Positions 11,060 to 47,197 of a stretch of DNA of 64,000 nt are shown one piece after another. Numbering within the stretch: position 1 is the first letter of the stretch; every line of letters starts with the position of its first letter. A program made the translations under genes and the position numbers. The notes under the pieces were generated by a model. The model searched no databases and was not told the origin of the DNA. It worked only from the letters and a program-made list of their open reading frames with translations. Source of the stretch: Candidatus Zhuqueibacterota bacterium (GTDB lineage: Bacteria; Zhuqueibacterota; Zhuqueibacteria; Thermofontimicrobiales; Thermofontimicrobiaceae); assembly GCA_049322915.1 (NCBI GenBank), contig JBMOPW010000020.1, positions 238,006-302,005 of the forward strand, given 5' to 3'.

Positions 11060-11075
11060 AACATCGATTTTATTC

Positions 11076-11104
11076 TTGCTTTTTTGACGCGGTTTCTTTA
11101 TAAT
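11076..11104 (+). promoter_or_regulatory. sigma70-type promoter for the MFS gene
   Basis: TTGCTT-N17-TATAAT. Confidence 0.6.
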
Positions 11105-11192
11105 AGCGGTGCATGAAACGATTCATCACGTAAAAACATCCTTCCTAAATTCCCTGATCATCGTATCTATTTCATTTAGCTGGAGCAATTTC

Positions 11193-12587: not shown

Positions 12588-12610
12588 CTTTTAACTGAAG
12601 GAGCGCTTTC

Positions 12611-13324: not shown

Positions 13325-13344
13325 TCTGTTCGCCGGAATAAAAT

Positions 13345-13379
13345 AAAAGTGCACGACGGGTTTTGCCGTGCACTTTTTT
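13345..13379. terminator. Bidirectional Rho-independent terminator between convergent genes
   Basis: AAAAGTGCACG-loop-CGTGCACTTTTTT. Confidence 0.75.
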
Positions 13380-13549
13380 CATTTCTGAATCGGTGGATGA
13401 TACCGGCGTGGCTCCACTGTTCCGGGAGTCACTGGCCTGCCACAGGCAGTAACGCAGATAACTTTCACACCCTGCTGCAGCGGACGCCGATGGCCGGCGC
13501 GATGAGCATGACAGCCTCTTTCCCGATGAGTCGTCATCGGAGCGGGACA

Positions 13550-15076: not shown

Positions 15077-15129
15077 GACGACCACCTGGAAGTGTTTTTT
15101 GAATAGTATGGAATTAGCGCGTGCGGAGC

Positions 15130-15158
15130 AATGTATACAAATAATTGAAAAAAATCAA
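15130..15158 (-). promoter_or_regulatory. sigma70-type promoter for the 5'-nucleotidase
   Basis: Minus strand TTGATT-N17-TACATT. Confidence 0.5.
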
Positions 15159-15315
15159 GCACTTTGTAACATGGTCTGAGAAGGCGAAACCGGATCATAA
15201 AAAGGAAATTTTATCATTGATTCTGATTTTCAAAATTAATATCTTGTGACTATCGAAAATTTTATTGTACACATCATGGAAAATTGACGATTCAATAAAA
15301 ATTGCGGAGCGGTCT

Positions 15316-30236: not shown

Positions 30237-30420
30237 CAGTAATGCAATTCTGTGGGATGTCCGGGTGGGCTTGGAATGATGGTGTGTGCCCGGGAATAGT
30301 CATGCTACCACTTACCGTATATTTCCACTCCGTGCAATGATTATTATTTTCAAATCATTCCTGAATAAATTTTAATGTGCTGATACATCCGATAACCGCT
30401 AATGATTGGGAATACTGGCC

Positions 30421-33400
30421 ATGCAAGATGTTACAACCGTGAGATACAGCAATTTTCTGAAAGAGCAATCAGCGTTGAAACGAGTTTCGGAGCAACGCAA
30501 CGCCACTGAGCTTCTGTACCAGAGCGAGAAATTTCAATCAAATACTCCAGTCCAGAGTCTGCCTGGTTGGACGGAATTGCGGCAGAAGCTTTCCGAGGCA
30601 TCCGTCATTTTCTTTCCCAATGATGTGCAGCAGCAGACCTACACTGCGGATACCGGCACCCATATTGTCCCGTCCATCTTCAAGCGAATGCTGGTGAAAA
30701 TCAAGTTGTCCTTTGTATTTCGTCCCGGCTGTGTCGAAGATTTGAGCGTATTTGTGAAATGGGCGTATGAAAACAAGATTCATTACACCATTCGCGGCGC
30801 AGGCACCTGGCCGTTTGGGGGCTGTGTGCCCATCAACGGGGATGTTGTGGTTGATCTTTCTTACCTTGATTTTATGCACGTGGATGAGCGCGAGGGGATT
30901 TTCACATTCGGGGCCGGCGTCGTTTTCCCCAAGGCCAGGAAATTTTTACAGGAGCGGGAATTCACGTTAAAGCAGGAAATCACCAATCCTGGCAGCGGCA
31001 CCATTGCCGGCTGGTTGGCGACCGGCGGCATTGGACTCGGCAGCTACAAATACGGGCATGTCTCCAATTCCGTGCGCGCGCTGCTGGTCATTACCCCTGC
31101 GGGCGAATGCATCACCGTGGATCGGGACGACGCCAACTTCACCAGCTATTTCGGCAGCGAAGGCCAGTTCGGCATTATCGCCGGCGCATCCATGGAGGTG
31201 CGACGGGAATCCTACGTCACCAAGCCGTACGCGTTTTCCTTTACAAAATTCGAAGATGCGGTGCAGTTCATCCACATGCTTGAAAAAGCGCAACTGAAGC
31301 CCACTTCGGTCATTTACTTCAGCGACACCTACATTGCCGAGACGTATAAAATCGAGAAGCGCCACGTCGAAGAGCGACTGAATGAAGCGCTGGACAATAA
31401 CGACCAGACGCGTTTGCGCGAGACGCGCGAAGACCGCGATACCATCGAGGCGATGAAGCAGTACCAGCATGTCGTCGTCATCCATTTTGATGAAAACAGC
31501 GATTACCAATTCGCTTTGAAGTCGCGCCTGTTTGGCAAGAGCGGCGAATTGCGCCGCGCGAGTCATATCAGCTATTTGCAACTGCCCACTGACCTGGCGC
31601 ATATATTCTGGGATCACCGATTTCTGCCGGTGCAGCTTAAAGTCAACGGGCCGACTGTCCTTGTGAGTGAATTCGTGTTGCCGTTGGCGGCGTTTTCGAA
31701 TTTTCAAAACACGCTGCAAAAGGTGCTGGCTCGCTTGCTGAATATCGAGTTGAAGTCGGAAGCGCATCTTCTTCAAGACGGCGAAGTGTTGACGCAAGCC
31801 ATGTTCCTGGCTGACACGCGGACGTTTCGGCACAAGCTCTATTTTTCGCTAATTCCGCTGATGACGCAGGTCGGCTATTATTTTGGCGCCAGGCCGTACG
31901 GGATCGGTCTGTGGAATTATCCCTCATTGAGGCGGTGGCGAAGCGTGAACCGGGAGAAGGCCGATGCCATGATGGCGTTCAAAAAGGAATCGGATCCGCG
32001 CGGTCACATCAACCAGGGTAAATTCATCAATCCCCGGCGGCAGACGTTGGCGTTCAAGCTGTTCAAAATTATCACTCCCCGTTTCAACCAATGGTTCGTC
32101 GCCACCTACGATAAACGGATTCAGCAGAAAAAATTCGTCCTCACCTTCCCATTTCAGAAGTTGGTGTGGAATATCACCCGATTCATTTTCCCGCGAATGG
32201 TGCCGCCGGGGTTGAAAGCCGGAGAGCATGAACCCATCGAACGGATGATTTCAGTTTGCGCCGAATGCGACTCGTGCGAACGGGTCTGTCCGACTTCGGA
32301 TGTGTTCGGACTTTACGGCCCGGCCACGCCGATCACCCGCCGCCGCACAGCGCAGCGCTTGATTGCCGGAGAGAAAATCAGTCGGAATGAGGCGCTGGGA
32401 TTCCTCGCCTGCACCCGCTGCGACAATTGCACCGACATTTGTCCAACCAACATCAACCTCACGCAGGTGTTCGATCTGGTGGAAATGAATCCAAAGTTCA
32501 ACGCCCAGTTGAATTTCAGGAACGGTGAAAAGAAGGAGTATATCGATCGGTTCTGGCAGATCATGAAAGAGAGTCCGCTGTACATCGAACATACGCTGGC
32601 CGTTCAGAAAGAAGAGAAATCGCATCTGGCTCACGGGCTGAAAATTCTGTACGACAAAGGATTTGCCTACAGCGAATTGTACATCGATCCGACCACCTGT
32701 ATCCATTGCGGCATGTGCAGCAACGAAAACGCCTGCATGTACGCTGCCAGAGAAAGCCAGCCACGTCAGATTCCTGAACTGCGCCACATCAACTGCGCGC
32801 TGTGCAATGCCTGCGTTAATTTCTGTCCCCAGAACAAAATCATGGAGCGCACCCGGCTGTATTTCGATAAATTGATCCATCATGCCGTTGATCTGGAAGA
32901 GAAACGCTACTGGACCAAACAGCAGGCGCGGGTGCACGATACAACCACGGTGCAGCGGTCCACGCTGCTCACAGAAATGGCCGACCGCTACGTGACGGAA
33001 GAAATTATCATGGAAATTGATAAAGAGGCGTCCACCGGCAAAATCCCGGTTTCAGGATCGGGTCAGGGCGACCGGCACATGGGCATCGGCTTCGACGCCG
33101 AGCGGTTCGCTCATTTTCACATCGTGGGGCCGGCGCAAAACCGTCTGCACGAGGGCGATCCGGCAGAGGAACTGGCGGTGATTCTGGGCAAGCGGGAAGA
33201 TTTCTGCAAGTTTGACCGGGATGGCAATCTGGTGAATCCCGTGCATGCCAATATCAAATTGATGACGCCGATTTTATACAACGCCATCCCGCTGGAGAGC
33301 AACGGCAATGTGGAACTGGTTCTCATCAAAGTGGCGGAACAGCAGAAAAGCCTTGTGGTGATTCAATTGGAGCGGCTGCTGGAACACCATCAGGAAATCC

Positions 33401-36400
33401 TGAAAAATGGCGGGTATGCGCGCCTGCCCCAGGTGATTGTTCCGAGGGTGGGCAGCGATCTGATCAATCTGCTGACTGTCCACCAAAACACGAGCCGCGA
33501 TTTCATCACAGATCTGTGGCGCATGCCGGTGTTCGAGGTGGAATACCATCCGGACATCGAGCAGACCATCAGCTACATCCGCGGTTGCGTCGCCAGCAGC
33601 GAGAAAGTGCGGGCGCTGATCAGCGGGTATCTGGAAATTTCCGAGTACGACCTCATCGGCTCACTGAGTCTGACAGCGGATATCAAAGAGAAAGTGAACC
33701 ACTTCCTCGACCAGAAAGTGGATATAGTGCACATCCGCGGGCTGAGAAATAAAGACGAGTACTTTGTAACGTCCCGCGCAGTTCGCGCGCTGCATCATTA
33801 TCTGATGCGAATTGGCCGGCGGCATGAAGTGAGCATCATTGCATCGGGCGGAATACGGCTGGCATCGGACACGCAAAAGACAATTCAGCGCGGGGCTGAG
33901 GCCACGTTGATCGATTTCGCGGCACTGTTGGCGCTGGATCCTTCGACCTATCGCGCAATGATTGAGAATAAATCCACCACGGAAAAATTATTGAGCCTGG
34001 ATGTGGATTGGGCAGTGAAAAGGCTGCTCAACCAGGCTGAATCGCGCAAAGTGCAAATCCTTGAAGTGCTGGGCGCTGCCGGGTTCAAAGACCTGAAAAA
34101 GACGGTGGGCGAGGAAGGACGGCTCATCGATTTTCACAAACTGGAGAACAGAATTCAGCGGACGATTTTCGAAAATGAGCAACTCGTGGATGAGTATTCG
34201 ACCTGTAACGAGCAACTCATCAAAAATGAAACCATCCCGGAAACGCAGGTGCGCAGCTACAGCGTCCTGAAGACGAAACTGGCGCCCATGCCGGCGCCGC
34301 ACGATTTTTACAATCTCGGCGAAGTGAATCAGGTGCTGTACAAACGCGATTTTGTCTGGCCCGGGGCATTGATCGAATCCATGGGACGTATGGCAGCCGG
34401 GGACATGTCCATGCTCGATTTCAACAACGTGAAAAAGACCGGCCTGCTTGGCGATGGATTCGACGTCATGCGCATTTTGTACAACAAAGACCCGATGGAT
34501 ATTCACGAATCTGAATTGAACCAGATCTCCACTTCCTTGCTGCTGGACAAAGGCCTGATCCTCGAAGCGCCGTGGATGTTCGGTGGCAAATCCATCGGCT
34601 CCATCGGACTGGACACGTGGAAAGCGCACGTCACAGCGTCGCGGGAATTGGGCATTCAGTTCGACACCGGCGAGGGGGGCTATCCCACCAGCTTTTTCCT
34701 GAATTCGAAAGGCGAGCCGCTGTTCTTCACGGAGAATGAAATTCAACTCATCAAATCCTATTTCGAATCGGGCAGTGATTACACCATCGAGCAGATACAA
34801 AAGACGCTGGCAGAGAAGAAGATCACCGAAGAAAGCCATCCGGAATTGTACAAAAAACTGAAGCAATTTCCCTCGCTCAAGCCCTTCCGGTTTCTCGTCA
34901 TCGTCGATGAACAGGACCAGCCGTTCGTTTCGACTGAATTGAAAACCGGGCTGTTTGGCGTCACCAAGACTACGATTCAGAAAGCGCGGCGCGTGGTGAT
35001 TGCCTACAGTCAGGGCGCCAAGATGGGCATCGGCGGACACATCCTTGCGCAGAAGGTGAATAAACTGGTTTCGTACATGCGGGGGGTGGAAGGCATCGAA
35101 TACACCCACGCCGAGAAAGTGGAGCAGTTGTACCAGAAATTACAAAAAATCGCCTCGAAAAATGACCATCCGCTCCATGAACTGGCTGTTGCCAATCTGG
35201 ACATTTTCAACGCTATGGAAGACCAGCGGACTGCAACCGAAGCGTTCAAAAATGCGCTGTGGCAGATTCAGGAATATGCCTATAATCTCCATGCCCGCAA
35301 TGCGATTGATCCCATCGAATTCAAAAACATCCTGCAATTGTGCGAGGAGATCATCGACTACTCTTACAGCAGCATCATTTCGCCGTTCCCGTTTCACAAT
35401 TGTTATTCCATTGAAGATGTGAAAGCGTTCATCGATGTCGTGCGAATGATCAATCCGGAGGCGGTCATTGCCATCAAAGTGTCGCCGTCCATTGATATCG
35501 AATTCATTGCCACCGGACTGGGACGCATTGCGCGCGACAATACCGACGAAATTTTAGCCGCCAGATTCAACAAAACTCAGGCCGGATCGGACCCGTTGTC
35601 CGTCGAGATGGCCGAATATACCCGGAAATACGGAATGAAAATTGAAATCTGGCTGGATGGACCGCGCGGCGGCACCGGCGCGTCGCCCAATATCATCAAA
35701 GGTCAAATGGGCATGCATCTGGAATACGCCATTCCGCTGATTCACTATCGGCTTGTTAAAGACGGGCTGCGGAATTATGTCAAATTTATAGTCTCCGGCG
35801 GGATACGAACCTTTGAAGATGTGATCAAGGCTGTCGCCCTGGGCGCTGATGGTGTGGTCTGGGGAACGGCTCCGCTGGTGGCCATTGGCTGCGACCGAAA
35901 CCGGAACTGTCACGACGGCTGTTCGCGCGGCATTGCCACGAGCAATTTGAAGCTGCAACAACTGCGCGATGTGGCGGTTAACACGCAGCAAATCATCAAC
36001 GCGTTCACCATGATTCAGATGCAATGTATCCGCGCCATTGCCGCGCTGGGATTTTCCGACATCCGCGAGCTGCGCGGCCGGTTCGACAAAATTCATTGGC
36101 TGGGTCTCAAAGAACGGGTGGATCACCGCTATCGGGTGCGCGCTGAAGTGATTAAAGAGATTGAGAAGGACGAGCAGCTATTCGAGCAGCGCATGGCTCG
36201 CGCGACTGGCCAGAGCAATTGCGGCGTGGCGGCCATTAACGGCACGACGGCAATTCCCGGCTATATACTCGACCAGACGCTGCAATCGATGCGGAACCGC
36301 GGCATGGATGGCGTTGGCATTGCCAAAACGCTCTGTTTCCCGGACCATCCGAATGAATACGCCTATCGCATCCTGGTGAAGGGTCGGCTGCACCGGGATA

Positions 36401-39072
36401 TTGAATTTGAGCTGAGAAAATCGCAGGACGGAAAGAATGAGGCGATGGATGAAAATGAACTGCGGACGCTCGCCCGCGAAAGAACCGTCGCCCTGCGAAT
36501 CAGCCTGATGCGCAAAATCAAGTCGATTTATCTCGATCCCTATTTCGATTATTTCGGCCAGGACGATGTGACACGGTGTCGCGAGCCGTACAAAGTCAAC
36601 GAGCAGAGCGCAGAGAGGGACTATCGGGAGTTTGGAAATGCCAATACTGATCCCGGCGATGTCTTTCGTTTCTTCGTACGGGTGAAACCGGCGGCGCTGT
36701 ACCATTTCATCGAAAATGAACTGCTCCGCGGCGGCAAGCCGCGATTGCTGGAGCACCTGTTCCCGGAGATAACGCCGAATAATTACCGGCAGAACGAGAC
36801 TTTTCTGAACAAGGCAGAGGATTTGTTCATCCTGCAGCACTCGCACAATGTGACGCGGATTCTCTATGTGTCGTCGGTGCTGCCTGATGAATTGGAAAAG
36901 TTCGCCGGCAAGAAGATCGGTCTGAAGCGCATTTCCGAAGCCGATGAGGAATACATTCTGGCGGATGTCCGCGATGAGGATTGCTCCGATTATCTTAAAC
37001 TGCTGCGTGATTTCATGCTAGCCCATCCGTTTGAACATCACAAGCATCGCTACGGGGTGCGTAATCATAAAATCGCGGCGGTGATGTCGTGCGGGAAGAA
37101 TTTCGCCGTGTGGAAGACAGCCGGCCGCGAAATACCTTGGCAGACGCCGGACGCTCCCAACAATATCATTCACGTGCGATTGGCCACCGGCTCGGTGGTC
37201 GAGCAGATGAATTCGCACCCGTTCGCCAAACTGCACACCGCGCTGACTCACAACGGCGAGACCACCAATTACGAGGCGCTGAAGCAGCGCGTGGAGCAAT
37301 TCAATCTATCGCCATTGGCCAGCACCGATACGGAGGTGGCTTCGTTGAAATTTCATCTCACCGCCGATGAATGGGAATACCCGGACTGGGCGTTGTTCGA
37401 AAGTTTCTCGCCTACCACCGGCGATGATTTGCAATTGGTGGACGAAAAGATCAGGCCGCAGTTGGAGCAGGTGCAGCGTGTGGAATTCACCAGTTCCCCG
37501 GATGGCCCGTATCAATACCTGTGCCTGCGCCACAATCCCTACACCCGGGTGACCGAGCGCGTGGATTTGAAAGACCCGGCGGACCTGCGTCCCAATGTGA
37601 CCGCATTCTGGAGCGATCAATCCAACGGCCAACGGCGCGTCTTCAGCATCATCGCTTCGGAAGAACAGGCCATCAACACCATGCTGCGACTGCTGGATAA
37701 AGAGGGCATCATTCAGGGGAGCGTTGCAGATTTGACCTTTGTGAACGCCGGCATGATCAGCCGCTATTGGTACGACGAAGCCAATCGGATCACGGATTTC
37801 CGTTTCGTCGACCGCTACGGTCGCGCCATTCAACTGGAAAATAGCGGCATGCATCACAGTGTGCGCCAGGGAAAACCGTTGCCGACGCAGGGAAAAGACA
37901 CCCATGCTGGCTGGCAGAATCGCTATCAGCAGTTTTTCAGGGACAATCTGGCTGCCATGACGTTCGATGAGTTCCGCTGGCTGCTGCATCAGCAGTCCAA
38001 CGAAAACGCGGACAATGCCGCCTTTGCGCGCACCCTGGAAATTTTCACCTGGCTTCGCGATTATCTTCGCACGCTGAATCCCGGAGAAAAGGCGCAGAGT
38101 TCGCTCATCGACATCACGCAGTATTACATCGACGCGCTGCTGGATAGGGCGAAGGAATCGGTTTACAGCAATTATGTCTGGTGCAGCCGGGAGTCGGCAT
38201 TGCAATTCAACACGCGGGCTGGCGAGGGCCAGACACTGGTGATCAATGCCGGGAAATTTCTGCCGGAGGGCACAGACCCGGCAGTCTCGCTGACCGCATT
38301 TCTGTCAAAAGCCCACCGCCTGGGCTGGCGCAAATTCATCCTGTACAATACAACAGGTCAGCGGCTCATTTCAACGGCGGCGCTGCACGGAGGTGATTCG
38401 GACGATGTGGTCATGGATGTGTACGGCTCTGTCGGCGAATACTTTGGCGCGTTCATGCAGGGCGGCATTCTGCGATTGCACGGCAACGCACAGAACTTCG
38501 CCGCCATGTGCATGCATCACGGCGAATTGTACATTTTTGGCAATGCCGGCAAAGTGTGCGGCTACGCATCCAAAGGCGGCAAGGTCGTTGTTCTCGGCAA
38601 TGTCGTGGATCGCTGCTGGACCAACTCGGTGAACGATTCGCGCTGTCAGGATCTGGACGTGATGATTTTGGGTTCCGCGACAAAGTACGCCGGCGAGTCT
38701 CTCATGGGCGGTAAATTTTTCTTTGCCGGACTTCATTTCGATGTGAAAGGCAATTTATGCTTCAACGAGCGGCCCTACCTGGGCACGAAAATGCTCGGCG
38801 GCGCTTCACGCGGCGATTTCATTTTCTTCGATCCTGAAAATCGGCTCATCCACGCGCAGTACGTCCACGGCGCAGAGAAGCAGTTCACCATTGAGGAATG
38901 GCAGGCGTTCAAAGAAAAAGCCAAATCGGTCTTTCGTCTGTCCAATATCCCCATCCACGAGGCCGACGGCGTCGAATCCATTCAGGTGGGTGATCGCCGA
39001 TACGACCTCATCCCGGCGCACTTCAAATTTATCGTTCCCAGAGGCGGACTCCGCGGCTATGAGTCCCATTGA
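30421..39072 (+). CDS. gltB: Giant multidomain glutamate-synthase-related fusion: FAD-linked oxidoreductase + 4x[4Fe-4S] + two GltB FMN barrels + class II GATase + GXGXG domain
   Basis: One open frame (TTG 30406 is an alternative start). FAD_binding_4 motifs RGAGTWPFGG and GSEGQFGII; four CxxCxxC ferredoxin motifs; DTGEGG, QGAKMGIGGH, DGPRGGTGASP, SGGIRT, GCDRNRNCHDGC; CGVAA...RGMDG...HVRLAT...HPF...HNGE...TDTEV; GSVGEYFGAFMQGG repeats. Confidence 0.9.
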   Translation: MQDVTTVRYSNFLKEQSALKRVSEQRNATELLYQSEKFQSNTPVQSLPGWTELRQKLSEASVIFFPNDVQQQTYTADTGTHIVPSIFKRMLVKIKLSFVFRPGCVEDLSVFVKWAYENKIHYTIRGAGTWPFGGCVPINGDVVVDLSYLDFMHVDEREGIFTFGAGVVFPKARKFLQEREFTLKQEITNPGSGTIAGWLATGGIGLGSYKYGHVSNSVRALLVITPAGECITVDRDDANFTSYFGSEGQFGIIAGASMEVRRESYVTKPYAFSFTKFEDAVQFIHMLEKAQLKPTSVIYFSDTYIAETYKIEKRHVEERLNEALDNNDQTRLRETREDRDTIEAMKQYQHVVVIHFDENSDYQFALKSRLFGKSGELRRASHISYLQLPTDLAHIFWDHRFLPVQLKVNGPTVLVSEFVLPLAAFSNFQNTLQKVLARLLNIELKSEAHLLQDGEVLTQAMFLADTRTFRHKLYFSLIPLMTQVGYYFGARPYGIGLWNYPSLRRWRSVNREKADAMMAFKKESDPRGHINQGKFINPRRQTLAFKLFKIITPRFNQWFVATYDKRIQQKKFVLTFPFQKLVWNITRFIFPRMVPPGLKAGEHEPIERMISVCAECDSCERVCPTSDVFGLYGPATPITRRRTAQRLIAGEKISRNEALGFLACTRCDNCTDICPTNINLTQVFDLVEMNPKFNAQLNFRNGEKKEYIDRFWQIMKESPLYIEHTLAVQKEEKSHLAHGLKILYDKGFAYSELYIDPTTCIHCGMCSNENACMYAARESQPRQIPELRHINCALCNACVNFCPQNKIMERTRLYFDKLIHHAVDLEEKRYWTKQQARVHDTTTVQRSTLLTEMADRYVTEEIIMEIDKEASTGKIPVSGSGQGDRHMGIGFDAERFAHFHIVGPAQNRLHEGDPAEELAVILGKREDFCKFDRDGNLVNPVHANIKLMTPILYNAIPLESNGNVELVLIKVAEQQKSLVVIQLERLLEHHQEILKNGGYARLPQVIVPRVGSDLINLLTVHQNTSRDFITDLWRMPVFEVEYHPDIEQTISYIRGCVASSEKVRALISGYLEISEYDLIGSLSLTADIKEKVNHFLDQKVDIVHIRGLRNKDEYFVTSRAVRALHHYLMRIGRRHEVSIIASGGIRLASDTQKTIQRGAEATLIDFAALLALDPSTYRAMIENKSTTEKLLSLDVDWAVKRLLNQAESRKVQILEVLGAAGFKDLKKTVGEEGRLIDFHKLENRIQRTIFENEQLVDEYSTCNEQLIKNETIPETQVRSYSVLKTKLAPMPAPHDFYNLGEVNQVLYKRDFVWPGALIESMGRMAAGDMSMLDFNNVKKTGLLGDGFDVMRILYNKDPMDIHESELNQISTSLLLDKGLILEAPWMFGGKSIGSIGLDTWKAHVTASRELGIQFDTGEGGYPTSFFLNSKGEPLFFTENEIQLIKSYFESGSDYTIEQIQKTLAEKKITEESHPELYKKLKQFPSLKPFRFLVIVDEQDQPFVSTELKTGLFGVTKTTIQKARRVVIAYSQGAKMGIGGHILAQKVNKLVSYMRGVEGIEYTHAEKVEQLYQKLQKIASKNDHPLHELAVANLDIFNAMEDQRTATEAFKNALWQIQEYAYNLHARNAIDPIEFKNILQLCEEIIDYSYSSIISPFPFHNCYSIEDVKAFIDVVRMINPEAVIAIKVSPSIDIEFIATGLGRIARDNTDEILAARFNKTQAGSDPLSVEMAEYTRKYGMKIEIWLDGPRGGTGASPNIIKGQMGMHLEYAIPLIHYRLVKDGLRNYVKFIVSGGIRTFEDVIKAVALGADGVVWGTAPLVAIGCDRNRNCHDGCSRGIATSNLKLQQLRDVAVNTQQIINAFTMIQMQCIRAIAALGFSDIRELRGRFDKIHWLGLKERVDHRYRVRAEVIKEIEKDEQLFEQRMARATGQSNCGVAAINGTTAIPGYILDQTLQSMRNRGMDGVGIAKTLCFPDHPNEYAYRILVKGRLHRDIEFELRKSQDGKNEAMDENELRTLARERTVALRISLMRKIKSIYLDPYFDYFGQDDVTRCREPYKVNEQSAERDYREFGNANTDPGDVFRFFVRVKPAALYHFIENELLRGGKPRLLEHLFPEITPNNYRQNETFLNKAEDLFILQHSHNVTRILYVSSVLPDELEKFAGKKIGLKRISEADEEYILADVRDEDCSDYLKLLRDFMLAHPFEHHKHRYGVRNHKIAAVMSCGKNFAVWKTAGREIPWQTPDAPNNIIHVRLATGSVVEQMNSHPFAKLHTALTHNGETTNYEALKQRVEQFNLSPLASTDTEVASLKFHLTADEWEYPDWALFESFSPTTGDDLQLVDEKIRPQLEQVQRVEFTSSPDGPYQYLCLRHNPYTRVTERVDLKDPADLRPNVTAFWSDQSNGQRRVFSIIASEEQAINTMLRLLDKEGIIQGSVADLTFVNAGMISRYWYDEANRITDFRFVDRYGRAIQLENSGMHHSVRQGKPLPTQGKDTHAGWQNRYQQFFRDNLAAMTFDEFRWLLHQQSNENADNAAFARTLEIFTWLRDYLRTLNPGEKAQSSLIDITQYYIDALLDRAKESVYSNYVWCSRESALQFNTRAGEGQTLVINAGKFLPEGTDPAVSLTAFLSKAHRLGWRKFILYNTTGQRLISTAALHGGDSDDVVMDVYGSVGEYFGAFMQGGILRLHGNAQNFAAMCMHHGELYIFGNAGKVCGYASKGGKVVVLGNVVDRCWTNSVNDSRCQDLDVMILGSATKYAGESLMGGKFFFAGLHFDVKGNLCFNERPYLGTKMLGGASRGDFIFFDPENRLIHAQYVHGAEKQFTIEEWQAFKEKAKSVFRLSNIPIHEADGVESIQVGDRRYDLIPAHFKFIVPRGGLRGYESH

Positions 39073-39142
39073 GATGAACTAAATGCACCCTGCGGGGTTA
39101 AATTATCAGATTAAAATCGACAGACCTCGCAGGTGCCCATTT

Positions 39143-40588
39143 ATGAAAATGACTATCCCGTCAAATATTTCTTTTCTCAAGTACAGCATTCGCACGCGAC
39201 TGATCCTCCTTTTTTTCCTTTCCACCATCATGATTTTTGCTTCCGCCGGCTATTACCTGAACTGGCAGATTCGCGCGACGCTGGACCATGCGCTCAGTCA
39301 AAATGTCGAGGCGATTGCCTCCACGTTTGCCGGGCAAATCGACCCGGGGCTGATCGTTCACATCCAGCCCGGCGACGAAAATTCCCGCACCTATCGGCAT
39401 GTGCTGCAGCAGTTCGATCAATTCAAGCGGGTGAAAGGCATCTCCCGGATCTACCTGTTTTTAGCCGATGGCGCCAGTCTTGTCGATTCCGATTCAACCG
39501 TGCGAATTGGCCAGAGATACGCGCAACTGAATTACAGTCAGCAGGAAATGCAGGAGGTATTCTCCGGGCGCACGGCCAGTTCGGTTCTCTTTGCCGGCGT
39601 TGGTGGGCGATTGTACAAGTCCGGGTTCGCTCCCATCTGGCACGGCGACAGAGTACTGGCCGGAATCGCCGTCGAAGCCAGCGCGGAAATGCTGGAGGCG
39701 GTCGACGCCATTCGGAACGATCTGCTGATTCTGGGAGTGGCTGTTGCCATCGGCGCCATTTTCGTCGGCGCTATTTTTGCAAACCGCATCACCACGCCGC
39801 TGAAGAAATTGCAGCACGCTTCGGAGAAAATAAGTCAGGGCTATTTCTTTCAGCCAATTCCTGATTGCGGCCGGGACGAGGTTGGATTTCTCAGCAGCAC
39901 CATGGAACAGATGCGCCAGAATATTTTGATTCGGGATAAGCGCCAGCAGGCCATGCTCGCCGGCGTTGCCCATGAAATTCGGAATCCGCTGGGCGGCATT
40001 GAACTCTGCGCCGGGCTGCTGACCAATGACATCGAAAATCACGGATTGAAAAAATACGCCCAGAAAATCCTCGTGGAAGTGCAGCATCTCAAGTCCATCA
40101 TTCAGGGATTTCTGGATTACGCCCGACCCAATCCGGCGGCAAAGCAGTGGACCGACATCCGAGCCGTCTGGGACGAAGTGCAATTTTTGCTGGCCGGCGA
40201 AATGAATGCGGTGACGGTGAGTTTCACGCGCGCGCGCGATGCGGCAACCCTGTTCGTCGATCCCCTGCATCTCAAACAGATATTTTTGAACCTGCTGAAA
40301 AATTCACTGATAGCGGTTGGAACCGATGGAACGATTTTTGTTGAAATACACCGGGCCAACGACGACGTCGAGATCATTTTTTCTGATACCGGCCCGGGAA
40401 TACCGGCCGAATTGCAAAGCCAGATTTTCGAGCCATTTTTCACGACGCGCGAAAAGGGCACCGGCCTGGGACTGGCTGTGGTGAAAAATCTCGTGGAGGA
40501 AAATGGGGGCGTGATTCGCTATCAGGAAGGCGAAGGGGGAGGAGCTTGTTTTGTCATCACGTTTCCAATTGAGCTGATGAGAAGATGA
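39143..40588 (+). CDS. Membrane sensor histidine kinase (periplasmic sensor, HAMP, HisKA, HATPase)
   Basis: Two TM helices, HAMP (PLKKL...DEVGFL), H-box AGVAHEIRNPL, NLLKNS, DTGPGI, FEPFFTT, GTGLGL. Confidence 0.93.
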   Translation: MKMTIPSNISFLKYSIRTRLILLFFLSTIMIFASAGYYLNWQIRATLDHALSQNVEAIASTFAGQIDPGLIVHIQPGDENSRTYRHVLQQFDQFKRVKGISRIYLFLADGASLVDSDSTVRIGQRYAQLNYSQQEMQEVFSGRTASSVLFAGVGGRLYKSGFAPIWHGDRVLAGIAVEASAEMLEAVDAIRNDLLILGVAVAIGAIFVGAIFANRITTPLKKLQHASEKISQGYFFQPIPDCGRDEVGFLSSTMEQMRQNILIRDKRQQAMLAGVAHEIRNPLGGIELCAGLLTNDIENHGLKKYAQKILVEVQHLKSIIQGFLDYARPNPAAKQWTDIRAVWDEVQFLLAGEMNAVTVSFTRARDAATLFVDPLHLKQIFLNLLKNSLIAVGTDGTIFVEIHRANDDVEIIFSDTGPGIPAELQSQIFEPFFTTREKGTGLGLAVVKNLVEENGGVIRYQEGEGGGACFVITFPIELMRR

Positions 40589-40994: not shown

Positions 40995-42377
40995 GTGCCC
41001 GAAATATTGATCGTCGAAGATAACGCCACCATGCGCGAGGCCATGGTTGCCATTGTGGAGCGAATGGGCTATTCCTGCGATCAGGCAGAAAACGGTCGCG
41101 TGGCCCTGGAGCGGTTGGCCGCTAACGCGTATGAGTTTGTCGTGAGCGACTATAAAATGGAAGGCAAAAACGGGCTGGAAATTTTGAACCATATCAAGGG
41201 TACCACCCCGGCGACGGAGGTTCTCATCATCACTGCCTACGGGACAATTGAATTGGCCGTGGACGTGATGAAAGCCGGGGCAGCCGATTTCATCACCAAG
41301 CCGTTTTCCCACGATGAATTCAGGATGAAGGTGGAGCGCATTTTTCAGCGAATCCAGGAACGAAAAGAGCTGTCCCGCATTTCCGATGAAAATGCCTACC
41401 TGCGTCAGGAACTTGACGAGCAGTTCAATTACGGCGATATCATCGGACAGTCCGACGCCATGCGCAAAGTGTACCAGACCATCGACAAAGTGGCTCAGAC
41501 AGATTCGTCGGTGCTGATTTATGGCGAGAGTGGGACCGGGAAGGAATTGGTCGCCCGCGCCATTCACAAAGCCAGCCCGCGGAAGAATAAACCGTTTGTA
41601 CGGGTCAATTGCGGCGCGCTGGCCGAGACGTTGCTGGAATCGGAATTGTTCGGTCACGAGCGGGGCGCGTTCTCCGGCGCCATCAAGAGGAAAAAAGGCC
41701 GGTTCGAACTGGCCGATGGCGGCAGTATTTTTCTCGATGAAATCGGGGACATCTCGGCCAACATGCAGTTGAAATTGCTGCGTGTGCTGCAAGAGAAGGA
41801 GTTTGAACGGGTCGGCAGCGAAGAGACAATTCAGGTGGATGTTCGTATTCTCGCTGCGACAAATAAAAACCTTTCGGACCTGGTTCAGCAGGGGACGTTC
41901 CGCGAAGATCTGTATTACCGGCTGCATATCATTCCCATTTATCTCCCGGCGTTGCGCGAGCGGACGAGCGACATCCCCATCCTGATTGATTTTTTCCTCG
42001 CCAGATTCAGGTCAGAATTCAAGCGACAGCATATCAGCATCAGCCGGGATGCTGTTGAAAAACTTGTGAGCTACCGCTGGCCCGGCAATGTGCGGGAACT
42101 GGAAAACGTCATCGAGCGCGCATTTGTCCTCTGCGATGGCGACGCCATTCGGAGCAGCGATTTGCCGATTCTCACTTCGGAAGAGTCGCACAAATTGCCG
42201 GCGGATCTGCTGGATCGGTTCCAGCTCAATCTGAACGACACGCTGTACGCGGTTGAAAAGCACCTGCTGGAACGGGCGATGCAGCAGAGCGACGGGAATA
42301 AATCCCAGGCCGCCAAAATTTTAGGCATTAAAACGAATCTGCTGTATTATAAATTAGAAAAATTTGGAATGATTTGA
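40995..42377 (+). CDS. sigma54-dependent response regulator (NtrC family: REC, AAA+, Fis HTH)
   Basis: ILIVEDN, VVSDYKM, ITKPF; GESGTGKE, ESELFGHERGAFSGA, FLDEIG, FREDLYYRL, WPGNVRELEN; GNKSQAAKILGI. Confidence 0.95.
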   Translation: MPEILIVEDNATMREAMVAIVERMGYSCDQAENGRVALERLAANAYEFVVSDYKMEGKNGLEILNHIKGTTPATEVLIITAYGTIELAVDVMKAGAADFITKPFSHDEFRMKVERIFQRIQERKELSRISDENAYLRQELDEQFNYGDIIGQSDAMRKVYQTIDKVAQTDSSVLIYGESGTGKELVARAIHKASPRKNKPFVRVNCGALAETLLESELFGHERGAFSGAIKRKKGRFELADGGSIFLDEIGDISANMQLKLLRVLQEKEFERVGSEETIQVDVRILAATNKNLSDLVQQGTFREDLYYRLHIIPIYLPALRERTSDIPILIDFFLARFRSEFKRQHISISRDAVEKLVSYRWPGNVRELENVIERAFVLCDGDAIRSSDLPILTSEESHKLPADLLDRFQLNLNDTLYAVEKHLLERAMQQSDGNKSQAAKILGIKTNLLYYKLEKFGMI

Positions 42378-44633: not shown

Positions 44634-44649
44634 TGGCATACAAGTTGCA
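44634..44649 (+). promoter_or_regulatory. sigma54 (-24/-12) promoter
   Basis: TGGCATACAAGTTGCA = TGGCA-N6-TTGCA with GG-N10-GC spacing, 80 bp upstream of the DUF3160 start. Confidence 0.85.
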
Positions 44650-44728
44650 TTTAACGAACAACAACAGTCCCAGTGGGATGTGTTGAAGAAAAGCAATGAA
44701 TCATTCGCTTCGAAAAGTGAGGTTCACT

Positions 44729-47197
44729 ATGAAAACAAAACCCTGGCAGACGGTAATCCTCTGTGGGATCGTTCTTTTTAGCTTCACCTCGTTGAGCGTG
44801 TCACAGATTCCGGTCACAATTCCTGATGATGTGGAGACCGAGTTTGGGACGTACCATCCAATTCCGGTCCAATTCACCCCGCAAGTTCCTGAGTTTCAGC
44901 TCGAGTCTGATTTCAGCAATGTCACCAATTATAATTCTCTCGGCTGGTGGTTCAACGCGACCGACATGAGTCTGCTGCTGGACAATCATTTTACGGTGAA
45001 AAAAAGCCAGTACAAGCAACTTTACGAAGTGTACAATGCCTGCACCTGGGACGGAACCCCGATATTCGTCACAGCCGATGCGGTGCTGCATACCTATCAT
45101 GTGCTGTTCGATTATTTTCTCTCCGAAATTGAGGCTCGGAAATTCGTGGCTGCGTTGAGCGAATTGACCGATGCGATGATCCTCAACATTGAGGCCGATT
45201 ACCCGCAGCTCATGACAGCGCAGGCCCGGGATGCGGCTTTGTCCAACCTGGCCTATTTCTATGTCGCCCGAAAATTGCTTTCCCCTGATGATGCGGCGCC
45301 GGCGGAGATCGCAGATGTGGTGGATGCGGAATTAGCCCTCATCGATGCGCACGAAGGCTTTTCTTTCTCCCCGATTTTTGGGGAATTCTCCAAACTGGAT
45401 TATAGCCAATTCAAACCGCGCGGGCATTACACGAAAAGCGAAACGCTTCAGGTTTATTTCAAAACCATGATGTGGTACGGCTGGACTATTTTCACGATGG
45501 AACCTCAACTGTTCGGCGAAATTGCAGCGCGGCATTCACTCCAGGCGCTGCTGATGGTTCAGGATATCTATACGCTGCAGGGAGCAGAAGCGTCGCTTGA
45601 AACGCTGTGGGACTCCATTTACGAACCGACTGTGTTTTTCGTGGGCAGAACCGATGATCCGAACATCCGCGATTATCGCATCCTTGGGGAGCAGATTTAT
45701 GGCGATAATTTTCTGACCCTTTCCGGGGATAGCCTGGCCAATGCCCACCTGCTGGATGCGTTCATGGCGCAGGCGCAGACGCTGCCTGAGCCAAAAATAC
45801 CCAACTGGATTCATGGCGCTTTTATCACGTACAAGGGATTCCGCTTCATGGGTCAGCGATTCATCCCTGACTCGTACTGGATGGCGCATCTCATCGATCC
45901 GTATGTTAGGTCCCGCTATTTCCCCAAAGGACTCGACGTACTGGCAATTTTAGGTTCGGCCCGCGCGTGCGCCTTGATGGATTCAGTCTACCACGAAACG
46001 AGTCCTGGCTACGCTGAAAAAATCGCCGAGTTTCGAGCCGAACTGATGGCGCTGAATCCGGAACAGTGGGCGCAGAACCTGTATTGGAACTGGCTCTATT
46101 GTCTGCTGCCGTTGCTCGGAGAGAAAGGCGCCGGCTACCCATTGTTCATGCAGACGCTGGCCTGGGCCGATAAAGAGTTGCTCACCGCTCTGGCGTCCTG
46201 GGCAGAACTCAGGCACGATACCATCCTCTATGCAAAACAAAGTATGACTCCCTGCGGTACAACGCCCGGTACACCAAAAAGCTACGTCGAACCCAATCCA
46301 CTTCTTTATGCGCGGCTGGCCAGTCTGGTCCAGTTCACAAAGGATGGATTGAGTTCAAGAAATCTTCTCCTGGATGGCTTCGACGTCAGACTGGATTCAT
46401 TTGAGAGGCTGCTCTTATTTTTGAAGGACATTTCGATCAAAGAATTGGAAAGCATACCGCTGACAGACACAGATTATGAAAATATTTTCTGCTTCGGATC
46501 GGTGATGCAAGACCTGGTATCTGTGACGTTAGACCCGAATAATCCCTTCAACAGGGACGTCGACGACATGGCCGTCGTGGCCGATGTGCATACCGATTCC
46601 AACAGCGAACAATGCCTGGAAGAAGGCGTGGGCTATCCGCTGGAAATTTATGTCATCGTCAACGAAGGCGGGGACATTCGGTTGACGCGCGGAGCGATTT
46701 TTTCTTACTACGAATTCACTCAGCCCATCGCCGATCGATTGACCGATGAAAAATGGCGACAGATGCTCGTCAGCGATGCTCCGCCCAAAATGCCGGAGTG
46801 GGTATCCGGCTTTGTGAACGTGAATGAGGAGCAGCCCGAGTACTCCGAATTTTCCCCGGGTAACCTGTTCAATCATCTGTTTCTAAGCGTGGAGCGCATC
46901 CATCGAGAAGTGAAGCCGAAGACCACTCAACTCCTGACGAATTATCCAAATCCGTTCAACCCCCGGACGACGATTCAATATCAATTGGATAAAGCAGCGT
47001 TCGTCCGCCTGGAAATCTACAACATCAACGGGCATAGGATTCGCACATTGGTCAATGAAGTGCAGACGTCGGGGGTGTACGCGGTGCGCTGGGATGGACG
47101 GGATGAATCCGGGAGAGCCGTCGCCAGCGGCGTCTATTTCTGCGCGATGAAATCCGGCGACTATGCCAAAGCTAATAAACTGTTTCTATTGAGATAA
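44729..47197 (+). CDS. DUF3160 domain protein with T9SS C-terminal sorting domain
   Basis: GAGG RBS; signal peptide; PIFVTADAVLHTYH, DYSQFKPRGHYT, FRFMGQRFIPDSY, LASWAELRHDTILYAKQS, VADVHT, RGAIFSYYEF; C-terminal NYPNPFNP...ASGVYF. Confidence 0.9.
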   Translation: MKTKPWQTVILCGIVLFSFTSLSVSQIPVTIPDDVETEFGTYHPIPVQFTPQVPEFQLESDFSNVTNYNSLGWWFNATDMSLLLDNHFTVKKSQYKQLYEVYNACTWDGTPIFVTADAVLHTYHVLFDYFLSEIEARKFVAALSELTDAMILNIEADYPQLMTAQARDAALSNLAYFYVARKLLSPDDAAPAEIADVVDAELALIDAHEGFSFSPIFGEFSKLDYSQFKPRGHYTKSETLQVYFKTMMWYGWTIFTMEPQLFGEIAARHSLQALLMVQDIYTLQGAEASLETLWDSIYEPTVFFVGRTDDPNIRDYRILGEQIYGDNFLTLSGDSLANAHLLDAFMAQAQTLPEPKIPNWIHGAFITYKGFRFMGQRFIPDSYWMAHLIDPYVRSRYFPKGLDVLAILGSARACALMDSVYHETSPGYAEKIAEFRAELMALNPEQWAQNLYWNWLYCLLPLLGEKGAGYPLFMQTLAWADKELLTALASWAELRHDTILYAKQSMTPCGTTPGTPKSYVEPNPLLYARLASLVQFTKDGLSSRNLLLDGFDVRLDSFERLLLFLKDISIKELESIPLTDTDYENIFCFGSVMQDLVSVTLDPNNPFNRDVDDMAVVADVHTDSNSEQCLEEGVGYPLEIYVIVNEGGDIRLTRGAIFSYYEFTQPIADRLTDEKWRQMLVSDAPPKMPEWVSGFVNVNEEQPEYSEFSPGNLFNHLFLSVERIHREVKPKTTQLLTNYPNPFNPRTTIQYQLDKAAFVRLEIYNINGHRIRTLVNEVQTSGVYAVRWDGRDESGRAVASGVYFCAMKSGDYAKANKLFLLR

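Follow-up and report, generated by a model that had tools for sequence, protein, structure and literature searches.

A single-chain glutamate-synthase-like protein with a predicted built-in FAD/[4Fe-4S] electron input in a Zhuqueibacterota bacterium

A giant reading frame and its integrity

The window, by which we mean the whole 64-kb stretch of DNA analysed, contains one exceptionally long gene on the forward strand. Its product, referred to here as the giant protein, is composed of a VAO-type FAD module, two di-[4Fe-4S] domains, a barrel resembling the central domain of GltB, an FMN/[3Fe-4S] barrel, a class II glutamine amidotransferase (GATase) and a GXGXG helix, in that order (Table 1). 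The original prediction of a single uninterrupted frame of about 2,885 residues was borne out; the frame encodes 2,883 residues, or 2,888 if translation begins at an alternative TTG at 30406, and is open from either start to 39072. Residue numbers count along the 2,888-residue form (C1939 is residue 1939 of 2,888), and P0003, the entry standing for this protein in the database, is 2,883 residues long. The domain coordinates that had been predicted proved accurate by Pfam and motifs, with the amidotransferase start at 36220 being exact.

The unusual length and domain order were the sole prior ground for suspecting an assembly chimera, a frameshifted pseudogene or several genes wrongly read through, and no support for such an origin was found. 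A single Logan contig of 28,939 nt (depth 71.6), produced by a second assembler from a sequencing run that may be the source, spans positions 30400-39100 with 0 differences and 0 gaps; the domain junctions, where stops or frameshifts would indicate a chimera, contain neither in this contig. Low-depth pieces from a second study carry substitutions only, with no indels over the gene. In addition, a frame of 2,877-2,969 residues is present in 13 of 151 sampled genomes (12 besides G000, the genome of the window), and 70 homologs of 2,800-3,000 residues derive from NCBI, JGI, ENA and Logan assemblies. The GC content of the frame (0.537, compared to 0.488 for the genome) corresponds to the 93rd percentile and is inside the genome's range; a foreign origin of the gene was ruled out on the same grounds. 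The giant frame is a genuine single gene, and the probability that it is an artefact is in our estimate close to nil.

Table 1 Features of the giant gene and its predicted product
Feature	Position (nt)	Strand	Details
Whole gene	30421..39072	+	ATG 30421, stop TGA 39070-39072; 2,883 aa
VAO/PCMH-type FAD-binding and cap domain, GlcD/D-lactate-dehydrogenase-like	30712..32040	+	Residues about 103-545
First di-[4Fe-4S] domain, long-spacer Fer4_8/Fer4_17 type (predicted)	32257..32445	+	C618/621/624/628, C669/672/675/679
Second di-[4Fe-4S] domain, bacterial-ferredoxin type Fer4_21/Fer4_7 (predicted)	32698..32826	+	C765/768/771/777, C797/800/803/807
Barrel 1, GltB central-domain homolog	32983..34185	+	Residues 860-1260; hhalign
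Barrel 2, FMN-binding synthase domain	34438..36120	+	Three Cys for [3Fe-4S]: C1829, C1835, C1839 (nt 35890-35922)
Predicted self-cleavage site N1938/C1939	36217..36222	+	N-C-G-V-A-A invariant 70/70
Class II (Ntn) glutamine amidotransferase, about 660 aa	36220..38205	+	GATase_6 E 5.3e-8 on segment
GXGXG right-handed beta-helix	38230..39069	+	PF01493

Domain structure of the giant protein

The N-terminal module has the two-domain FAD plus cap fold of the GlcD/D-lactate dehydrogenase subgroup of the VAO/PCMH family, as judged by Pfam and Foldseek. PF01565 (FAD_binding_4) matches residues 103-238 with an E value of 9e-26 (90.6 bits, cut-off 26.4), and profile searches matched the module to LctD (7qh2_C, E 1.2e-30) and mouse LDHD (8jdb, E 3.3e-24). 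The predicted structure has a mean pLDDT of 75.5, with the FAD and cap blocks mostly at 85-96, and superimposes on mLDHD, LctD and RPA1076 with target-normalised TM scores of 0.73-0.79 over about 500 aligned columns (0.79 for mLDHD 8jdv and 0.73 for LctD). By sequence and fold, the module resembles LctD, LDHD and glycolate oxidase. The FAD motif RGAGTWPFGG contains no His, and the domain is of the non-covalent VAO-family type. The cap departs from that of these enzymes: RPYGIG stands where LctD has GEHGIG (the alignment over this region scores just 5-7 bits, with a fitting distance to the DP...N..K motif), GH.GDGN.H is without its second His, and FAD-oxidase_C (PF02913) stays below its cut-off on this segment (15.6 bits, cut-off 21.2). 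We take GEHG(I/V)G and GH.GDGN.H to represent the His/His/Glu metal site and the catalytic His of D-2-hydroxyacid dehydrogenases; with the first motif and the second His missing from the cap, there is no support for a 2-hydroxyacid donor. Conservation extends to the FAD-binding motifs and to cap residues Y498, G499, G501, W503 and N504 (70 of 70 homologs), and the Trp, Arg and Pro of a W..R..P motif in the cap are invariant in 15/15.

The FAD module is followed by four CxxCxxCxxxC motifs (nt 32257-32826) that start at C618, C669, C765 and C797, two per domain. All 16 cysteines, the predicted ligands of four [4Fe-4S] clusters, are kept in every one of the 70 homologs. The built-in electron-input module that had been claimed is thus present, with the FAD domain and the four ferredoxin motifs on the same chain. 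Searches for standalone relatives of the N-terminal module gave 13 matches at E <= 1e-10. The closest look like fragments of giant proteins, and one of them, P0125, is in the same 90% cluster as a 2,874-residue member; the remaining matches are FAD plus ferredoxin proteins with 23-28% identity. When five distant genomes that contain a GATase-GXGXG module were searched for the FAD module, only generic FAD_binding_4 proteins were found, and one that was retrieved is encoded on a contig whose length differs from that of the contig with the GATase-GXGXG module.

Barrel 1 had been described as a degenerate GltB FMN barrel. We reject a decayed FMN barrel, as barrel 1 together with the FMN barrel is collinear with residues 616-1203 of canonical GltB (hhalign probability 100, E 2.8e-39), which identifies it as homologous to GltB's central domain. 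Few parts of the protein are better conserved (mean identity to the 70 homologs 0.74-0.85 for residues 851-950 and 0.76-0.85 for residues 1101-1250). It is located directly before the FMN domain, as is the central domain of canonical GltB. The first half of barrel 1 was left unaligned to canonical GltB by hhalign. Residues 860-1260 produce weak Glu_synthase and Glu_syn_central Pfam matches, and PF04898 is under its cut-off in the giant protein (17.0 and 12.7 bits, cut-off 22.8) and matches the split homolog P0124 at E 7.4e-9.

Barrel 2 is readily recognised by PF01645 (Glu_synthase), which covers about residues 1345-1905 (E 2.7e-59 on the segment; 213 bits, cut-off 20.4). It aligns with residues 855-1172 of 2vdc/1ea0 with the three [3Fe-4S] cysteines in register, and contains three large insertions compared to A. 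brasilense GltB. These cysteines, the TGEGG, QGAK, GGTGA and SGGIR..D motifs and residues E1423, K1539 and R1559 are present in 70/70 homologs. In the synthase motif, QGAKMGIGGH replaces the QGAKPGEGGQ of canonical GltB, and the keto-acid specificity could differ between the two. At the C-terminus, residues 2661-2772 match PF01493 with 36.2 bits on the segment and 30.7 on the whole protein (cut-off 32.5), and the domain aligns with the C-terminal domain of canonical GltB (hhalign probability 96.7, E 3.8e-10).

The amidotransferase is matched by GATase_6 (residues 2252-2311), GATase_4 and GATase_7 only. PF00310, the GltB-type GATase family, has no match anywhere in the genome, and hhalign gave no alignment of the domain with canonical GltB; on these profile comparisons the amidotransferase is of a non-GltB type. 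The class II signature, consisting of a nucleophilic Cys-Gly at the first strand, an Arg, an Asn-Gly and an Asp, is complete: C1939-G1940 as well as H2256, R2258, T2261, N2283, G2284 and D2308 are found in all 70 homologs, with about 310 residues separating the Cys lobe from the R/N-G/D motifs. In an alignment with GlmS residues 67-128, the R, N-G and D of HxRxAT, HNG and TDTE are retained, and the catalytic roles that we assign to them (N-G in the oxyanion hole) are presumably those of the GlmS residues. Foldseek returned weak matches to GltS, GlmS, GFAT and PurF (E 2.6e-4 to 1e-2), and the most conserved stretch of the domain was modelled at a pLDDT below 50.

Class II amidotransferases require a free α-amino group on the catalytic Cys. 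As C1939 is internal, self-cleavage between N1938 and C1939 is predicted, which would convert the precursor into chains of about 215 and 106 kDa that would remain associated. N1938 is invariant along with C1939, and upstream of the pair S/T1937 is found in 70/70, Q1936 in 67/70 and G1935 in 61/70 homologs. In the GATase model the 14 residues preceding the Cys have pLDDT values <50, and the first strand begins with the next residue (16-26). In the split homolog P0123 the amidotransferase Cys is about 35 residues from the listed start. We know of no precedent for such a cleavage in class II amidotransferases beyond short propeptides.

Relatives, split forms and genome context

The 70 full-length homologs, collected as database proteins of 2,800-3,000 residues and aligned by MAFFT with its faster settings, are 53-80% identical and align end to end with the same domain order. 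The architecture is found across many uncultured anaerobes, with MAGs of KSB1, Calditrichota, Gemmatimonadota, Krumholzibacteria, Planctomycetota and Thermodesulfobacteriota carrying it under generic database names such as "FAD-binding protein" and "glutamate synthase-related protein". Some homologs are encoded on closed MAG chromosomes of Calditrichales. The original prediction took the architecture to be undescribed and asked for a search for the same domain order. No description was found in openly accessible article texts, and a search count gave 0 occurrences of "glutamate synthase" for a Zhuqueibacterota paper (PMC11683472); the architecture is, though, not unique, as the database entries attest. 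A collinear form of 2,520 residues exists in Thermodesulfobacteriota, and forms of 2,520, 3,031 and 3,294 residues hold the same module set. In the 3,152-residue relative P0163 the order is rearranged to GATase-GXGXG, FAD, Fe-S, central and FMN. On the evidence of these protein sequences, the FAD module belongs with GltS parts, being fused to them in P0163 too.

Other genomes encode split forms. G007 has a gene for the central and FMN domains followed by a GATase-GXGXG gene, while in G029 central, FMN and GATase-GXGXG are successive genes. These operons share with the giant protein both the gene order and the same divergent GATase_6-type amidotransferase fused to GXGXG. Unlike the giant protein, they contain no FAD module and no ferredoxin domains, and their Cys is near its own N-terminus. 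To our knowledge, none of the split GltS-like operons has been characterised. The GATase-GXGXG module is also encoded in MAGs of Bathyarchaeia, Heimdallarchaeota, Thermoproteota, Planctomycetota, Verrucomicrobiota and Chloroflexota, and archaeal single-domain GltS ORFs are mentioned in PMC8097209. It is plausible from the module orders that the giant gene arose by re-fusion of split modules, the relation of split and fused forms being unrooted. The claim that the fused order is non-canonical stands in so far as it differs from that of GltB; central, FMN and GXGXG follow one another as in GltB, which leaves the amidotransferase as the one part out of place.

The genome is 96.3% complete and has one PF01493 match, which is the giant gene, and one glnA. 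No canonical gltB was found in it (no PF00310 and the one GXGXG match), and the sole glutamate dehydrogenase candidate is a 952-residue protein of the NAD-GDH type. By gene content, the giant protein is the only candidate GOGAT of this genome. As predicted, the 64-kb window contains no gltD-type gene; six Fer4_20 matches are located elsewhere in the genome. The 13 flanks compared, from 9 relatives, comprise 82 ORFs; among the 22 of these nearest the gene, no neighbours were found to be conserved beyond the same genus, and they gave no hint of an electron donor. Single cases are a lactate-permease fragment that precedes the gene in G131 and SDR genes that follow it in G132 and G007. A histidine kinase/sigma-54 regulator pair is encoded downstream of the giant gene. 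A sigma-54 promoter upstream was considered and rejected; positions 30237-30420 contain none, and the window as a whole shows no excess of the pattern (10 matches, 13.9 expected). A search for RNA evidence listed no RNA data set.

Five genomes of the phylum sample (G132, G142, G145, G109 and the unpublished G088) contain both the giant-type module and a canonical GltB-type GATase, which fits a function that is not redundant with GOGAT. That the enzyme is dispensable can be seen within the window's own family, in which two genomes have broken fragments only and both genes are missing from four.

Proposed function and comparison with known enzymes

We propose, at a probability of about 0.6, that the giant protein is a self-contained glutamine:2-oxoglutarate amidotransferase (GOGAT-type) in which an FAD/[4Fe-4S] input replaces GltD or ferredoxin. 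A two-electron donor would reduce the FAD, the FAD module thereby acting in the role of GltD or ferredoxin, and the electrons would pass one at a time through the four [4Fe-4S] clusters and the [3Fe-4S] cluster to FMN. Hydrolysis of glutamine at Cys1939 would release ammonia, which would be channelled to the FMN site for reaction with 2-oxoglutarate, and reduction of the imine would give glutamate. The potentials of VAO-type flavins are usually above those of the GltS clusters, so that some of these electron-transfer steps would be uphill.

The same machinery could catalyse another reaction, as an amidotransferase or reductive aminase that uses another 2-oxoacid or amide donor or runs in the reverse direction, and this we consider possible but unlikely. 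It would account for the two positions at which the synthase motif departs from the canonical one (GIGGH, compared to GEGGQ) and for the co-occurrence with a canonical GltB-type GATase in the five genomes above. No curated NCBIfam model claims the protein either, the best match being gltB NF008730 with 119.8 bits against a cut-off of 1047, and GltB-domain homologs with a non-GOGAT function presumably exist in MgsABC. On the other hand, glutamine-derived ammonia and a dicarboxylic keto-acid are favoured by the invariance of the glutaminase residues and of Lys, Arg and Glu in the synthase site, and glnA is present in the genome without a second complete GOGAT. Reversal, in which glutamate or an amine would be oxidised at FMN, electrons would leave via the Fe-S clusters and a substrate would be reduced at FAD, is unlikely given glutamine hydrolysis, which is established GltS chemistry (PMC8097209).

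A different entry point for electrons appears improbable. Soluble ferredoxin in its reduced state, or another protein, might feed surface [4Fe-4S] clusters, as in Fd-GltS, leaving the VAO-like domain with a structural or regulatory function or a side reaction. The catalytic His/metal motif seen in the closest relatives that have been characterised is indeed missing from the cap, and the central/FMN proteins of G007 and G029, having no FAD or ferredoxin domains, must draw electrons from a separate carrier. Conservation of the FAD-binding motifs, of the distinct cap residues and of W..R..P argues against an idle domain, and fusions of the FAD module with GltS parts occur in two or more orders and in lineages at 25-43% identity, which is hard to reconcile with a passenger. 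More doubtful still is a redox-neutral "hydrogen-borrowing" aminase that, in addition, would be the first of the class II amidotransferases to mature through internal self-cleavage. Here an organic acid, most boldly 2-hydroxyglutarate, would be oxidised at the FAD site, and the same two electrons would travel via the four clusters to FMN, where glutamine-derived ammonia would aminate the resulting or a second 2-oxoacid. Neither NAD(P)H nor ferredoxin would be needed to make glutamate, and the catalytic Cys would be freed when the 320-kDa precursor cleaved its own invariant Asn/Cys bond. The cap has the W..R motif but lacks the known metal/His site of 2-hydroxyacid dehydrogenases.

The recognised electron-donor classes of GltS are NADPH, NADH and ferredoxin, and the amidotransferase is N-terminal in all that are known. 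If the GOGAT-type reading is true, the giant protein would contribute a fourth kind of input, in which a flavin dehydrogenase of the VAO type is connected via four extra clusters, as well as a different domain order. With two flavins and five Fe-S clusters in one natural chain, it would also lend itself to studies of how long-range electron transfer is coupled to ammonia channelling. A clear prediction follows from the internal nucleophile, namely self-cleavage at the N/C bond. Moreover, where this family is the only GOGAT candidate, as here, its generic labels may lead metabolic reconstructions to score nitrogen assimilation as missing.

The FAD_binding_4 plus cap fold is common to the giant protein and the GlcD-family FAD/Fe-S dehydrogenases, which include LctD of the Ldh-EtfAB complex (7qh2), LDHD (8jdb), D-2-hydroxyglutarate dehydrogenase (6lpn), glycolate oxidase (9qgz) and YdiJ (NF049975). 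They share the RG.GT motif without the covalent His, the W..R motif and the C-terminal DP...N..K motif, and in GlcDEF/YdiJ a long-spacer di-cluster domain comes after the FAD module, as it does in the giant protein. Unlike the GlcD family, the giant protein has neither GEHG(I/V)G nor the second His of GH.GDGN.H, and CCG/quinone-side domains were not found in it; the output would go to the GltS module instead. In N-methylglutamate synthase MgsABC, the counterparts of the GltB amidotransferase, GXGXG and FMN domains are individual proteins; the enzyme has a non-GOGAT function and, unlike the giant protein, is not a redox enzyme with an Fe-S input.

Like the giant protein, Fd-GltS (Synechocystis, 1ofd, 1llw) combines glutaminase, central, FMN/[3Fe-4S] and GXGXG domains in one chain, but it has no built-in flavin or ferredoxin input and its amidotransferase is N-terminal. 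NADPH-dependent GltB/GltD (A. brasilense, 1ea0, 2vdc, 6s6s) likewise has the central domain, FMN/[3Fe-4S] barrel, GXGXG helix and class II GATase. Its electron chain runs from FAD through two [4Fe-4S] clusters and the [3Fe-4S] cluster to FMN, according to section 6.1 of PMC8097209, and by analogy to GltD as described there the giant protein has an input module of one FAD and [4Fe-4S] clusters. The amidotransferase of the giant protein differs from that of GltB in being placed after the FMN barrel rather than at the N-terminus and in not being of the PF00310 type, and its FAD module is of the VAO/PCMH type, whereas GltD is adrenodoxin-reductase-like. Finally, the giant protein is predicted to carry four [4Fe-4S] clusters in a single chain, compared to the two of GltB/GltD.

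Reading frame and domain order

The giant gene, a glutamate-synthase-like fusion, occupies a single open frame. When Pfam was run on the full-length protein and on six of its segments, the modules came out in the order that the original prediction had read from the sequence alone, with accurate coordinates (table). An assembly chimera was also considered: a contig from another assembler (28,939 nt, depth 71.6) spans 30400–39100 with zero differences, a result that tests the assembly and not the sample because the run behind this contig may be the source of the window DNA. Relative to the giant gene, low-depth pieces from a second study differ by substitutions alone, and together these comparisons rule out that the frame is an assembly artefact. 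The GC content of the ORF (0.537, genome 0.488) reaches the 93rd percentile among 8.65-kb windows and is no outlier.

Features of the giant gene and protein and of associated loci (nucleotide positions are those of the window unless a locus is named)
Feature	Location	Detail
Giant gene frame	30406/30421-39072 (+)	2,888 aa from TTG, 2,883 aa from ATG
FAD_binding_4	residues 103-238	90.6 bits
Two ferredoxin-type di-cluster domains	four CxxCxxCxxxC motifs from C618, C669, C765, C797	Pfam and motif
Barrel 1	residues 860-1260	weak Glu_synthase (E 1.6e-5) and Glu_syn_central (E 0.085)
Barrel 2, Glu_synthase	after barrel 1	strong, E 2.7e-59
Class II amidotransferase, GATase_6	after barrel 2	E 5.3e-8
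Cys of NCGVAA	residue 1939, nt 36220	
GXGXG domain	after amidotransferase	36.2 bits on segment
HAMP histidine kinase	39083-40588	just downstream of giant gene
Sigma-54 response regulator	40995-42377	just downstream of giant gene
Sigma-54-type -24/-12 motif TGGCATACAAGTTGC	44634-44648 (+)	48 nt before DUF3160 gene
DUF3160 gene	44696-47197	
Further large ORF	57973-61755 (-)	1,260 aa, near window end
Giant-gene fragments in L135 (G083:C45:1-9000)	59-358, 1617-1916, 3111-3410, 4350-4649	also in G124:C151
ORFs of separate cluster L017 (G000:C14:642000-660000)	12191-15256, 11220-11918, 9586-11163, 2461-5319, all (-)	

Synthase, amidotransferase and flavin modules

For the two barrels, a 16-sequence profile was compared by hhalign with one built from five canonical GltB proteins of this phylum. 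One collinear alignment resulted, running from the second half of barrel 1 to the end of barrel 2 against GltB 616–1203 (probability 100, E 2.8e-39); the first half of barrel 1 gave no alignment to canonical GltB in this comparison. The Pfam central-domain model matches the split homolog P0124 at E 7.4e-9, and barrel 1 is among the best conserved stretches of the protein, with mean identities of 0.74–0.85 at residues 851–950 and 0.76–0.85 at 1101–1250. The original prediction had taken barrel 1 for a degenerate FMN barrel; these three observations identify it instead as a homolog of the GltB central domain and not a decaying FMN barrel. Barrel 2 aligns to A. brasilense GltB 855–1172 with the three [3Fe-4S] cysteines in register, differing by three large insertions, and is by this alignment the synthase domain. 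The GXGXG domain pairs with the C-terminal part of GltB (probability 96.7).

The key residues are strongly conserved in a MAFFT alignment of 70 full-length homologs. All 16 ferredoxin cysteines, C1829, C1835 and C1839, the stretch N1938, C1939, G1940, V1941, A1942 and A1943, and amidotransferase residues H2256, R2258, T2261, N2283, G2284 and D2308 are each kept in 70/70 sequences. The same holds for the synthase motifs (GEGG of TGEGG, QGAK, R1559 and GGTGA, with T1421 in 69/70) and for G1798, G1799, R1801 and D1805 of SGGIR..D, in which S1797 is found in 66/70 and I1800 in 65/70.

The amidotransferase is, as judged from profile comparisons, not GltB-type: PF00310, the GltB-type family, has no match in the whole genome and hhalign gave no pairing with the canonical GltB domain. 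The domain aligns to GlmS residues 67–128 with Arg, Asn-Gly and Asp in place, residues with catalytic roles in GlmS. An AlphaFold model of residues 1925–2888 (pLDDT 76.9, 16-sequence alignment) gave weak fold matches to GltS, GlmS, GFAT and PurF (E 2.6e-4 to 1e-2) and to FhcC (E 3.5e-2) and FwdC (E 4.7e-2); the most conserved amidotransferase stretch was modelled poorly (pLDDT < 50, model residues 334–417). Class II amidotransferases depend on an N-terminal Cys whose amino group is free. Cys1939 is internal, which implies that the precursor would be cut between N1938 and C1939, freeing Cys1939. The residues preceding it are conserved to a degree uncommon in linkers (G 61/70, Q 67/70, S/T 70/70, N 70/70) and are predicted to be disordered; the model assigns its first strand from one residue after the Cys. 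As to the route, we can only speculate on an N-to-S acyl shift by Cys1939 or cyclisation of the invariant Asn.

At the N-terminus lies a VAO-type flavoprotein module of two domains. Its profile matches LctD (7qh2_C, E 1.2e-30), mouse LDHD, glycolate oxidase and alkyl-DHAP synthase, and its model (pLDDT 75.5) gives target-normalised TM scores of 0.73–0.79 when superposed on mLDHD, LctD and RPA1076. The flavin motif RGAGTWPFGG resembles the GlcD/LctD type and lacks the His found at this position in covalent flavoproteins; the cap W..R..P is invariant (15/15) and a C-terminal DP...N..K motif is also kept. The module combines the GlcD/LctD fold with an apparent absence of the catalytic motif of that subgroup. 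Where LctD has GEHGIG, the giant-protein family has RPYGIG (Y, G, G, W and N 70/70; HMM alignment over this region is weak, 5–7 bits), and GH.GDGN.H lacks its second His. These motifs form the known metal/His catalytic site of D-2-hydroxyacid dehydrogenases, which therefore seems to be absent. Our searches found no clear close free-standing relatives of the module.

Distribution, relatives and genome context

A search of 5.8 billion proteins, limited to lengths of 1,588–5,054 aa, gave 214 matches; 70 of the best 120, the window's own copy excluded, are 2,800–3,000 aa long and cover 95–100% of the query at 53–80% identity. Where named, homologs are called 'FAD-binding protein' or 'glutamate synthase-related protein' and come from KSB1, Calditrichota, Gemmatimonadetes and Krumholzibacteria MAGs. 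A second class of ~2,520 aa (Thermodesulfobacteriota/Syntrophaceae), which also has CGVAA, is collinear over the full length at 32% identity across the N-terminal 1,400 residues and 43% across the C-terminal 1,200. A GATase-GXGXG profile searched against 1.84 billion 50%-identity representatives matched 181 of them at E <= 1e-30, rising to 775 at E <= 1e-10 and to 4,217 at E <= 1e-3. Among GTDB species, each represented by a single genome, a relative is encoded by at least 585 stretches; the 80 stretches listed all come from uncultured-organism assemblies (79 labelled MAG), and among them relatives at 27–31% identity occur in Bathyarchaeia, Heimdallarchaeota, Thermoproteota, Planctomycetota, Verrucomicrobiota and Chloroflexota.

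Split and permuted forms also exist. Genome G007 encodes an 846-aa central+FMN protein followed by an 885-aa GATase-GXGXG protein with its Cys ~35 residues from the listed start, and G029 has the same order across three genes (478, 471 and 889 aa). In P0163 (3,152 aa) the order is GATase-GXGXG (329–1199), FAD (1295–1877), Fe-S, central and FMN (2578–2890), and no CG[VIL] nucleophile motif was found. Fusion in two orders, in lineages down to ~25% identity, is the best evidence that the FAD module would work with GltS parts. More distant GATase-GXGXG relatives (P0208, P0211, P0213) are fused after a Glu_synthase barrel; they have CxxCxxCxxxC at the position of the GltS CX5CX3-4C [3Fe-4S] motif, the CG[VIL] motif was not found in them, and they may represent a variant that binds [4Fe-4S] and whose amidotransferase-like domain is inactive.

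Within a phylum sample of 151 genomes (including unpublished G088 and G144), the C-terminal 969 aa matched 26 at E <= 1e-20; frames of 2,877–2,969 aa occur in 13 of these, the window's genome counted. Longer frames at 32–39% identity occur in G122 (3,081 aa, known by alignments A1–A3 of giant-protein parts alone), G022 (3,031 aa) and G064 (3,337 aa); Pfam found FAD_binding_4, FAD-oxidase_C, Fer4, Glu_synthase and GXGXG in the G022 and G064 ORFs (3,031 and 3,294 aa from the start codon). Canonical GltB-type amidotransferases are present in 75/151 genomes and in 0/11 of the window's family, where the giant-type module matched in 7/11: full-length frames in G113, G070 and G148, pieces on two contigs each in G095 and G127, and fragments only, several with stops, in G083 and G124. 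Four genomes of the family have neither gene, and G132, G142, G145, G109 and unpublished G088 have both, so the complementarity is suggestive, not strict. The G083 and G124 fragments (one genus) are ~260–300 nt long, match residues ~2217–2303 at 58–86% aa identity, mostly contain stops and lie inside a ~1.5-kb tandem unit; the queries used found no intact giant gene or canonical GltB amidotransferase in these two genomes.

The window's genome (6.25 Mb, 45 contigs, 96.3% complete) has one GXGXG match, the giant gene, together with two ~520-aa FMN-barrel-only proteins, one glnA and one 952-aa NAD-GDH-type dehydrogenase. Its six GltD-like Fer4_20 matches all lie elsewhere, none near the giant gene. 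By gene content, the giant protein is therefore the only candidate for a complete GOGAT. A separate cluster (L017) encodes a 1,021-aa NuoF-like/GltD-like fusion (2Fe-2S thioredoxin-like, Complex1_51K, NADH_4Fe-4S, Fer4_20, Pyr_redox_2), a Fer2/Fer4 protein and a 525-aa Glu_synthase-barrel-only protein, with the 952-aa NAD-specific glutamate dehydrogenase nearby, and may be another uncharacterised FMN-barrel oxidoreductase complex.

Neighbours of the giant gene (YchF upstream, the HAMP kinase and sigma-54 regulator downstream) are conserved within the genus only, and no sigma-54 promoter was found in front of it. The kinase/regulator pair probably controls the DUF3160 cluster, in which a serpin and several FlgD_ig/T9SS-tail proteins follow the DUF3160 gene, rather than the giant gene. 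G113 has the pair as well, and in G070 a DUF3160 gene directly follows the giant gene.

Predicted mechanism and comparison with glutamate synthases

According to passages of the Vanoni 2021 review (PMC8097209), GltS hydrolyses glutamine at a PurF-type site, a tunnel carries the ammonia to 2-oxoglutarate at FMN, and FMN is reduced via [3Fe-4S] from GltD (FAD and two [4Fe-4S]) or ferredoxin. By analogy, a donor would hand the VAO-type FAD of the giant protein two electrons or a hydride, and single electrons would pass from the long-spacer di-cluster domain through the ferredoxin-type di-cluster domain to the [3Fe-4S]/FMN pair. As an uncomputed estimate, a donor near the lactate/pyruvate couple could suffice because glutamine hydrolysis pulls the overall reaction; some of the electron transfers to the low-potential clusters would run uphill.

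The original prediction knew of no description of this architecture, and we likewise found none in full-text searches of the open, non-subscription literature; the review passages mention only archaeal ORFs for single GltS domains. The family is widespread in uncultured anaerobes, deposited under generic names and uncharacterised. Taken together, its domains suggest a protein that works like glutamate synthase and differs from canonical GltB in the type and position of its amidotransferase, scoring 119.8 bits against the curated NF008730 cut-off of 1047.
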